This document shows, piece by piece, positions 17,170 to 19,732 of a stretch of 64,000 bases of DNA. This DNA comes from Sphaerodactylus townsendi. Lineage: Eukaryota. Position 1 is the stretch's first letter. Every line of letters starts with the position of its first letter. The stretch is taken from the NCBI RefSeq assembly GCF_021028975.2, contig NC_059440.1:30938001-31002000 (forward strand), written 5' to 3'. The position numbers were made by a program, and so were the translations under genes. A model generated the notes under the pieces. It did not search any database. It worked only from the letters and a program-made list of their open reading frames with translations, and was not told the DNA's origin.

Positions 17170-18372
17170 CTGCAGGGGAGAGAGAGAAGCAGGCTGGGAA
17201 AGGTGCCTTCCTTCTTGATTTGCACAGTTCAAAGTAGAGAGAAGGGGGGAGATGGATTGGAAGGAGAGAAGAGAGTTGGGCTTGGACGAAGGCACCATTT
17301 ATGCCAAACAGGATACCCCCACGACACTCTGACACCCAGCAAAAAGGGGTAACAGGGTGGTCTTTCCCTCTTGCTTGCCTCCTGCCCCCTATAAGTCAGA
17401 GGTTCTGGTGACTGTGAGCGTTTTTGCTTGGCTCCAGAACGTCTCTTCTAATTCTCAGACTTCCCTAAAACGTTTCTGGATTTTGGCAGCCAGGCACTTC
17501 TAAGAAGCCTCTGACAACCTGAGGGTGAGGTGGGTGGTGCCCCTCTCCATTCTGCCACCAACAGGCAAATATTCCCTAGCCAAGCCTCAGTTTGAGCCAG
17601 GACCCATCCTGGTTTCTGGGCCTATTTGGCAACCTCTGGCTCTCCTTGGGGTGAGCGTGGATAGGAAAGGCGAGAGCATCTTGGAGCATGAGCAGAGCCC
17701 CTTTCCTTCCCTGTCACTAAGCAACCTGTTCCCAGCTCGAACACATCTGAGATGAGGCCAGCAGGAAGGGGATCTTTGTGGGAGGACAAAGGCCAGTGAG
17801 TGGGTAGTTGTTGAATAACCAGTTTATCAGCCATCCTGGGTAGAAGATCTTGGGGGAAAGTTACTTCGAGGGCAAAAGTCCAGAACAGAAGCTGAAATCT
17901 GTTCCTTCAGTAATCTGGATTTCTGCAGAAACAGATTTTAGGGGTTAAATTTAGGATTAATTACATCAAGGAAGAGTTAGGCTGAAGAGGGAAAGGCACT
18001 CTGCATGTGCTCAAGAGCACCCTTTTATTGTCCAGTTTTACAGTCGAGCACATTCCAGATCTACCGTTCACAGTCGTACTTCCTAGAAACGGGAGGAACG
18101 TAATGCGGGAAAGAACACAGTTAGTGTAAATTGAGTGAAATACGCTCTCTGCACATGATCAGAAGCAATCTCCCTATTGCTCAGTTTGGCAACCTGGTCT
18201 GTCTGCTTCTATTGTTCCCACACCTTCTTCAGACCGGCCTCAGAAACTTCACTGTGTCGTGGGTTGGATTAGATGATCTCAGGATACTTCCGCCATCTCC
18301 CCTCACACACAGACACACACGCTGCCCCTGGTCAGAGGCCCTCTGCCTCAGGTGCTTTGCACCTTGCTCTAC

Positions 18373-18589
18373 CTGCCCTGGCCCCTGCAGGCTCCGCAAC
18401 CAGCAAAGTGCCCAGGATCCGCTCCGACTCGCCCGCAGCATACACATGGGCAGTGTCCAGCTCGCAGTGCCCACGGTCCAGGAAGGCCCGCAGCAGGACC
18501 CGGCTGGCATCCAGGCCAGTCCTCCGCCCAAACTCCATGGTGCCCAGCACAGAGCGCACGCTTCGGCCCTGGCCACCCGGCACAGCCAT
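18373..18589 (-). CDS. AKR7A2: AKR7A first coding exon, proximal copy B (no N-terminal leader)
   Basis: [72 protein letters not shown] + G|GTAGAG donor; phase matches exon 2 (333-aa product). Confidence 0.8.
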
Positions 18590-19470
18590 CCTGGCGGCTT
18601 CTCTGTCTGGAACTGCCAGGAGTGGAGGAGCAAAGGTGACTGCATTTTAGGCTGTTCAAGGAACCGTCACAAAATTTGTAATGCCAGAAGGACACCTTTG
18701 GAGGAGGACAAAGTGTAGCAACATCTGGCACCTGCTATTCACAGGCAAACTGCCTCTATACATGGAGGATCTTTTTTTTTGCTCTGGCAGTAAATAGCTG
18801 GCAATAGATCCTGACAAAGGAGGCTGCCCGGATCAAGCCGGAAGGGCCCTCTGCTTGCTCAGCGTCCTGTTTCCAGCATGACCAACCAACTGCTTTTGAG
18901 AAGCCCCTAAAGACAGTGGCCCTGCCTGGCTGGCACTCAGATAGACTGCTCCTGAAAACTGAGGTTCTGTTTAGAGTGGAAATGCCTAACAGTGAAGGGC
19001 CACCAAGACGTTCGCAGCAAAACCGGGGACGGCTGACGACACACATCCACACACGCAAACCTCTCCTGCTTTCCTGCATGTCTGATGGACCAGCTGCTCT
19101 GCACATGCTCAGAGGACCTTCACTCCTTTTTTAAATGACCCAAAAATGATGTGCAGGGAAAAGGCACTCAGCATACGCTCAGAGGCCCTTTCCAGGTGGG
19201 CTGAAGGAATTCAGAAGCTGCCAGGATAAGAGCCCTGAGCGGTCGGTGGCCCATCAAAAGGGAGCTGCCTCCCTCCCTCCCCCTTGGGTCTGTTCTCCTC
19301 TGGGTTCCCCCGACGCCTTTAACGGAACGAAGAGCAGGAGCGCGCTCTGCGCATGCCCAAGCGAGCTTTGGTGTCAGCTGGACTGGATGGCCTCAGGATG
19401 GTCTCCATCTCCCCTGCCCCCCAGACACACACTCTGCACATGCTCAGCAGCCCTCTGCGCCCTGCCCTAC

Positions 19471-19732
19471 CTGCCCTGGCCCCTCCAGGCTCCGCAGCCA
19501 GCAAAGTGCCCAGGATGCGCTCCGACTCGCCCCCGGCGTACATGTAGGCCGTGTCCAGCTCGCAGTGGCCGCGCTGCAGGAAGGCCCGCACCATGGCCCC
19601 GCTCGCCTCCAGCCCGGCCCGCCGCCCGAACTCCATGGTGCCCAGCACCGAACCCGGGGCACGCGGCGCGGCCATGGCGGCGGCTGCCCAGGCTCGAACT
19701 GGCGGCCCAGCGCGGAGCAAGGGGAGCCGCAT
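19471..19732 (-). CDS. AKR7A2: AKR7A first coding exon, distal copy A (in-frame ATGs at 19732 and 19675)
   Basis: [87 protein letters not shown] + G|GTAGGG donor; inside CpG island; 348 or 329 aa product. Confidence 0.9.

Follow-up and report, generated by a model that had tools for sequence, protein, structure and literature searches.

Does the AKR7A gene of the gecko Sphaerodactylus townsendi make two enzymes from one gene body? The gene lies on the minus strand, with two open coding copies of exon 1 (A and B) upstream of one set of exons 2 to 7 (Table 1; positions are those of the window, the whole stretch of 64,000 nucleotides that was analysed). With a probability of roughly 65%, we read B as an alternative first exon under selection, whose splicing to exons 2 to 7 would yield a reductase that lacks the leader, is likely cytosolic and has Val ahead of the catalytic Tyr; B is most likely functional. 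An earlier sequence-only reading had described two intact first coding exons with phase-1 donors that fit exon 2, and its coordinates and counts hold: both donors are in frame with the start of exon 2 at 17169. The boundaries of exons 2 to 7 are given by joins in sequencing run X4 (see below) and by identity with public protein records. A whole-genome protein search with the B isoform returned eight matches, namely exon 1 twice and exons 2 to 7 once each, as expected from the earlier claim that these exons are single, and a DNA search with exon B returned two. The gene is placed between an MRTO4-like gene, a name that we assume from motifs, and a head-to-head PQ-loop gene, presumably SLC66A1-like. 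One contig of run X4 (window 19471-20434) extends from exon 1A as far as a donor on the plus strand, near 20432, and continues with letters matching the frame at 22704-23021, so that the PQ-loop gene begins no more than about 700 bases from A, in head-to-head orientation.

Table 1. Features of the AKR7A locus in the window.
Feature	Position	Strand	Remarks
Exon 1A	19471..19732	-	262 nt, phase 1, donor CAG|GTAGGG; 19-residue Arg-rich leader; beta1-alpha1-beta2-alpha2 module with DTAYMY
Second in-frame ATG of exon 1A (GCCGCCATGG)	19675	-	
Exon 1B	18373..18589	-	217 nt, phase 1, donor CAG|GTAGAG (A at +5); leaderless; module as in A with DTAHVY
Exon 2	16982..17169	-	Common to both isoforms; catalytic Lys and His, Trp at AKR7A1-77 position
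Exon 3	16103..16207	-	Common to both isoforms
Exon 4	15542..15638	-	Common to both isoforms
Exon 5	15137..15239	-	Common to both isoforms
Exon 6	14408..14537	-	Common to both isoforms
Exon 7, coding part including stop	13803..13964	-	Common to both isoforms
Decayed copy of A's leader, ahead of B	18590..18645	-	36/56 bases match, 1-nt deletion (frameshift)
Duplicated copy of A's 5' flank, ahead of B	18646..19200	-	CpG-poor adjoining B
CpG-rich region between exon 1A and PQ-loop gene	19733..20432		Shared by the two genes, head to head
GCGCATGCGC palindrome before A's ATG	19737-19746		Presumably NRF1-type

The two-isoform structure is already in the automatic annotation. A plus exons 2 to 7 equals public model P0007 letter for letter, B plus exons 2 to 7 equals P0028, and the RefSeq automatic models XP_048374969.1 (isoform X1) and XP_048374970.1 (isoform X2) are the A and B isoforms; a third public model, P0029, chains A to B through an AG at 18613. 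An automatic isoform model need have nothing more behind it than a protein alignment. Four sequencing runs of a single study (X1 to X4) were compared over 13500-20600. In each of runs X1 to X3 one unbroken contig of 10-11 kb crosses this interval; X3 is a second sample with seven other letters and a 4-nt deletion, and no variant in exon A, in exon B or at the deletion in B's leader is listed in the four runs. These contigs bear on the idea that the assembler collapsed two whole AKR7A genes into two first exons and one body. Whole-gene duplicates do occur in mammals and apparently in Pogona, and merged near-identical copies would be hidden in contigs; against this are set the three unbroken contigs (from one study and perhaps the assembly's own source, with X3 as a second sample carrying its own variants), the single occurrence of exons 2 to 7 in the genome, and the same module order in the gecko Euleptes. 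We regard a collapse, which the sequence-only reading had named as a danger to its proposal and of which we see no sign, as very improbable.

Run X4 was taken as RNA-like solely from six GT-AG joins that are absent from X1 to X3, its record carrying no RNA label. Five of the joins lie among exons 2 to 7, and the sixth (17169-19471) connects A to exon 2 and skips B. B is covered by an unspliced contig, and neither a B-to-exon-2 join nor any other join into B is listed in the X4 contigs. As contigs drop rare forms and cannot rank exons by depth, we do not count this as silence: it proves neither that B is silent nor that it is used.

Both copies have kept a common core, and the duplication extends well beyond it. 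A and B share 48 of 61 core residues (48 of 60 when counted from the Ser of SVLG, as before), with 11 synonymous codon differences (previously counted as about 10) and 13 non-synonymous ones, 156 of 184 identical nucleotides and no indel; a 12-nt in-frame A/B indel lies directly before the core. Behind B, the start of intron 1 is duplicated (18252..18372, minus strand, matching 19366-19470), with 79 of 105 aligned bases identical and two gaps, which agrees with the co-duplicated intron of about 100 bp with indels that had been noticed earlier. On the 5' side, 18742-19041 matches 19843-20110 (184 of 255 aligned bases identical) with a local score of 98, compared to a mean of 25 and a maximum of 38 in shuffles and to 23 and 55 for two control introns, and paired motifs at 19110/19180 match others at 20166/20211. 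These matches point to a tandem duplication of about 1.1 kb that copied the promoter region, exon 1 and the start of intron 1. This unit with its 5' flank, the deletion in B's leader and the 12-nt indel go beyond the earlier description. Three side observations belong to the same region. The short linker before SVLG (window 19645-19675) is common to A and to Paroedura picta P0026, and B keeps the long form of most lizards. All five matches to GAGCAYRTGCAGA in the window fall on one strand (minus) within the 2.2-kb 5' region 18012-20211; two pairs derive from the duplication and the rest do not, and the element is possibly a binding site. Intron 1 also holds a 50-base imperfect palindrome (window 17892-17941).

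Judged from the two sequences, the loss of the leader is the clearest difference between A and B: A's leader has three Arg and no acidic residue, and B's copy is frameshifted. The surroundings of B have changed as well. CpG observed/expected in the 5' flank is 0.10 at B versus 0.99 at A, B's flank is without a 19-nt stretch carrying the GCGCATGCGC palindrome, and B's donor has lost the G that A's carries at +5. An ATG at 18645, 56 nt ahead of the start codon of B, lies in another frame; it opens 105 codons and, in a transcript spliced to exon 2, would meet a stop 43 nt inside that exon. As for a promoter of its own, B has ahead of it an altered version of A's 5' flank. An inducible detoxification promoter for B is unsupported: loose ARE-like cores number one ahead of B, two ahead of A and 57 in the window, with no full match. 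Counted against our main reading, then, are the X4 join that skips B, the loss at +5 of B's donor, the CpG-poor flank, the lost palindrome and the upstream ATG.

The decayed leader also holds the AG at 18613, which lies downstream of the ATG at 18645, is in phase with A's donor and is preceded by 17 pyrimidines in 22 bases. Through it B could be functional as an internal exon, spliced either to a first exon without coding sequence that starts at A's promoter, which would give the same 333-residue protein and remove the out-of-frame ATG, or to A itself, which would give a two-module protein of 428 residues. Donor-like sites upstream of A (19819, 19911, 20399) fit this route, as do the position, phase and pyrimidine tract of the AG, and both P0029 and the Euleptes model chain A to B; yet such chained models may be prediction artefacts, run X4 lists no join into B, and a doubled beta1-alpha2 module would have no place in an eight-strand barrel. 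We consider use as an internal exon quite unlikely.

B does not look like a pseudo-exon: its frame is open, and the pairwise A/B dN/dS is 0.22-0.35. The upper value comes from the Nei-Gojobori method (0.35, bootstrap 0.14-0.81; 13 differences per 51.5 synonymous and 13 per 128.5 non-synonymous sites). The codon model gives 0.22-0.23, rejects 1 (p<0.001) and narrowly rejects 0.55-0.6 (p 0.02-0.04), the value expected had constraint been lifted from B only, from the duplication onwards. A dN/dS near 1, which would have told against the original proposal, is not what this A/B pair gives. There are no indels in 180 core bases, as against gaps in leader, intron and flank.

A counterpart of B is found in Euleptes, whose gene model P0003 (one automatic protein model chaining A and B) has two modules in the same order as Sphaerodactylus. 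The two Bs are identical at 43 of 54 residues and the two As at 41 of 54; Sphaerodactylus A matches Euleptes B at 44 of 54, above its 41 of 54 to Euleptes A. Asp27 and Arg30, which lie on helix 26-38 of the predicted model of B, occur in both gecko Bs and in none of 33 other modules. In the tree the two Bs are grouped (support 85.6/98) and the two As stand apart, Sphaerodactylus A joining the Bs (87.9/95) and Euleptes A joining Paroedura. By these protein comparisons the Euleptes model holds a B orthologue, B being retained in a model from a second genus. An older duplication shared with Gekkonidae was considered, as Euleptes A groups with Paroedura; no B-type module was found among five models from four other gecko species. 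In the protein region of exons 2 to 7, Sphaerodactylus and Euleptes differ at 23 of 261 residues, much like the 20-28 found against other gecko families, so that their split appears deep; it is put at tens of millions of years. In a neutral simulation, at least 43 of 54 identical residues without a stop were retained in 61% of cases at distance 0.1, 19% at 0.15, 2.9% at 0.2 and 0.3% at 0.25, and with an assumed indel rate in 14-2% at distance 0.1-0.15, all at assumed values of the neutral distance between Sphaerodactylus and Euleptes; the two shorter distances count against our main reading and the two longer ones for it.

Could B nevertheless be silent, or nearly so, its core kept intact by slow decay and by occasional conversion from A, 1.1 kb away? 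The differences are unevenly spread over the core, with 3 in the last 61 bases and 23 in the first 119 (p 0.012, the split being chosen post hoc), and 10 of the 26 lie at CpG sites of A. Because the As are ungrouped in the tree and differences are fewer in the 3' third of the core, some A/B gene conversion is plausible and may help to preserve B. Silence would also fit the A join as the only one listed in run X4, the lost promoter features, the CpG decay, the weaker donor, the out-of-frame upstream ATG and the closer match of Sphaerodactylus A to Euleptes B than to Euleptes A; moreover, a near-identical second exon 1 in toad models (see below), where Gly has become Cys within a conserved motif, suggests that such copies can arise without new function. 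However, the dN/dS falls under the half-neutral expectation, the two private residues common to both gecko Bs make it less likely that the 5' half was homogenised, and indels, abundant in the flanks, are missing from the core. We therefore think silence unlikely and prefer B as a selected first exon. The earlier proposal that one constant region serves two AKR7A enzymes stands in part, backed by the single body, the two constrained exons, the Euleptes B, the lack of any sign of a collapsed second gene and the Met/Val parallel with mammals, and its B product is a prediction from sequence.

The protein has an aldo/keto reductase domain (Pfam PF00248, E 2e-57), a (beta/alpha)8 barrel. The predicted fold of the B isoform (pLDDT 87.5) resembles AKR7A5 (TM 0.93) and matches 2c91, 2bp1, 2clp and 1gve first (TM 0.92-0.93), and the catalytic tetrad is complete in both isoforms (D45, Y50, K78 and H114 in B; D60, Y65, K93 and H129 in A). 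Exon 1B encodes residues 1-72 of 333 (beta1-alpha2), including Asp45 and Tyr50; Lys78, His114 and the equivalents of AKR7A1 positions 77, 110 and 224 are encoded in the shared exons, and both isoforms carry the AKR7A2-type Trp, Ala and Trp there. Calling exon 1 a variable active-site module, as had been done, overstates its role: most specificity residues lie in shared exons, and the position before Tyr also varies among single-copy AKR7A genes. Trp77, Trp224 and Met44 are all present in A, and B has both Trp with Val44. Met44 is reportedly also a specificity determinant (work ascribed to Zhu et al., 2006). A review gives Met77Trp as the strongest switch of specificity (PMC6651818). As the rest of the pocket is common to both isoforms, we predict a modest catalytic effect of Val in B. 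The Met/Val split previously cited for AKR7A2 and AKR7A3 is confirmed in the sequences of solved structures: human AKR7A2 has DTAFMY and AKR7A3 DTAFVY, mouse AKR7A5 has Met and rat AKR7A1 has Val. Residues 1-29 of human AKR7A2 send GFP to mitochondria, and a start-truncated form is cytosolic and nuclear (PMC12718117); the rat enzyme is described as Golgi-associated, AKR7A2 as ubiquitous and AKR7A3 as tissue-restricted (PMC7711093). For the proteins at hand, the hydrophobic moment failed to tell sequences with a leader from those that lack one.

We propose the following scheme. A tandem duplication of about 1.1 kb took in the promoter region together with the first coding exon of what was one AKR7A gene, and selection has probably maintained the downstream copy, B, for use as an alternative first exon. 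A, which sits at the CpG-rich promoter and is seen spliced to exon 2, likely yields a mitochondrial form and, by leaky scanning to its second ATG as in human AKR7A2, also a cytosolic Met form; the Arg-rich leader and the strong second ATG make both products likely. Transcription of B would begin at the changed promoter copy in front of it and would probably be weak or confined to few tissues; its transcripts would start downstream of the out-of-frame ATG at 18645, or ribosomes would scan past it. The gene may thereby gain a form that has no leader and that carries Val before Tyr, like AKR7A3 and rat AKR7A1.

Such a layout resembles UGT1A, GCNT2, UGT2A and the clustered protocadherins in its tandem homologous first coding exons, in phase with one constant set, and it shares with variable-first-exon clusters a lineage-specific exon duplication and a detoxifying enzyme (PMC1885805; the layout is also treated in PMC4465641). 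Unlike those clusters, AKR7A has two copies only, its variable exon covers 72 of 333 residues, the gecko copies differ in a targeting leader, and the splicing of B is predicted. The suggested likeness to UGT1A thus fits in the tandem homologous first exons of the same phase before one constant set, but fails in that the exon does not encode a whole substrate-recognition domain. Human AKR7A2 and AKR7A3, mouse AKR7A5 and rat AKR7A1 (2bp1, 2clp, 2c91, 1gve) have the same fold, the same tetrad and Met versus Val before Tyr, and gecko A has an Arg-rich leader comparable to the mitochondrial one of AKR7A2 (PMC12718117). Mammals, unlike the gecko, copied the whole gene, so that positions 77, 110 and 224 diverged too, whereas the gecko isoforms keep the AKR7A2-type residues. 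Human AKR7A2 itself yields a leader-bearing and a leaderless product from one gene through alternative starts (PMC12718117); that is a start-codon choice within one exon, whereas the second exon of the gecko would also change active-site residues, helix residues and the promoter. No literature on duplicated AKR7A exons or on lizard AKR7A was found in a search whose coverage stopped short of most subscription journals and of bioRxiv supplements. The design had been thought undescribed, which holds for papers but not for annotation: the same two sequences are the RefSeq records XP_048374969.1 and XP_048374970.1, which give a name only, with nothing on homologous exons, selection or relatives.

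Lacertid lizards appear to have arrived at a similar arrangement (their comparison, like that of Euleptes, uses protein models only). Gene models of five species (Podarcis muralis, P. lilfordi, P. raffonei, Lacerta agilis and Zootoca vivipara) have two versions of exon 1 each, and the residue before Tyr differs in all six pairs (Met versus Ile in five, versus Phe in one). This two-version exon 1, always differing at the residue before Tyr in these models, seems to be new. The versions of a pair differ at 1-6 of 71 residues, the residue before Tyr being the sole difference in the P. raffonei pair and in the older P. muralis pair, and the constant region is identical in all four pairs of full-length models. 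The Met version has a leader in four of five species, both Lacerta agilis models being leaderless. The second copy of Zootoca is a separate model of 110 residues, and when short proteins were sought that combine the start of B with the first residues of exon 2, one of two candidates matched, a Zootoca model. Compared to the gecko, the lacertid copies are far closer to each other, the chained P. raffonei model has the Ile copy first, opposite to the gecko order, and positions 77 and 110 hold Leu and Met. The lacertid clade has support 99/55, with two other lizards falling inside. From the order, the near-identity and the absence of the gecko B residues we infer that the lacertid duplication was independent of the gecko one; the five species count as one ancestral event. 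Apart from this, lacertid models (P0009 and others) have Leu/Met at AKR7A1 positions 77/110, and the other lizards checked have Trp/Ala (Ser in Elgaria).

Among the remaining homologues, 134 rows carry the motif (with redundancy; another 20 lack it, and 19 gecko and lacertid duplicate rows were excluded), of which 23 have a residue other than Met before Tyr (12 Ile, 7 Leu, 4 Phe and no Val), which indicates that this position changes easily. The Bufo bufo models P0164 and P0165, with and without a leader, have a common constant region and differ at two exon-1 residues (not the one before Tyr); they possibly represent a third exon-1 duplication. The Pogona vitticeps models P0010 and P0078 differ over the entire protein, and may be a whole-gene duplicate or divergent alleles. 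We offer only tentatively, and at less than even odds, the idea that in vertebrates AKR7A diverged on three or more independent occasions into an enzyme with a leader and Met and one that has no leader and another residue before Tyr, in mammals through duplication of the whole gene, and in sphaerodactylid geckos and in lacertids through duplication of no more than promoter and exon 1 on a common body.

If B is used, its isoform and that of A would be natural chimeras with the same 261-residue body, differing only in location signal and in the first quarter of the barrel. They would separate two effects that human AKR7A2 and AKR7A3 confound, that of the residue before Tyr and that of a mitochondrial as opposed to a cytosolic location. 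The P. raffonei pair would be a natural one-residue test of position 44. In mammals AKR7A copy number tracks herbivory (PMC11797053); gene counts would miss exon-level copies of AKR7A. What deserves testing is the repeat across geckos, lacertids and mammals: if the lacertid repeat is true, the same outcome would have been reached by exon duplication and by gene duplication.
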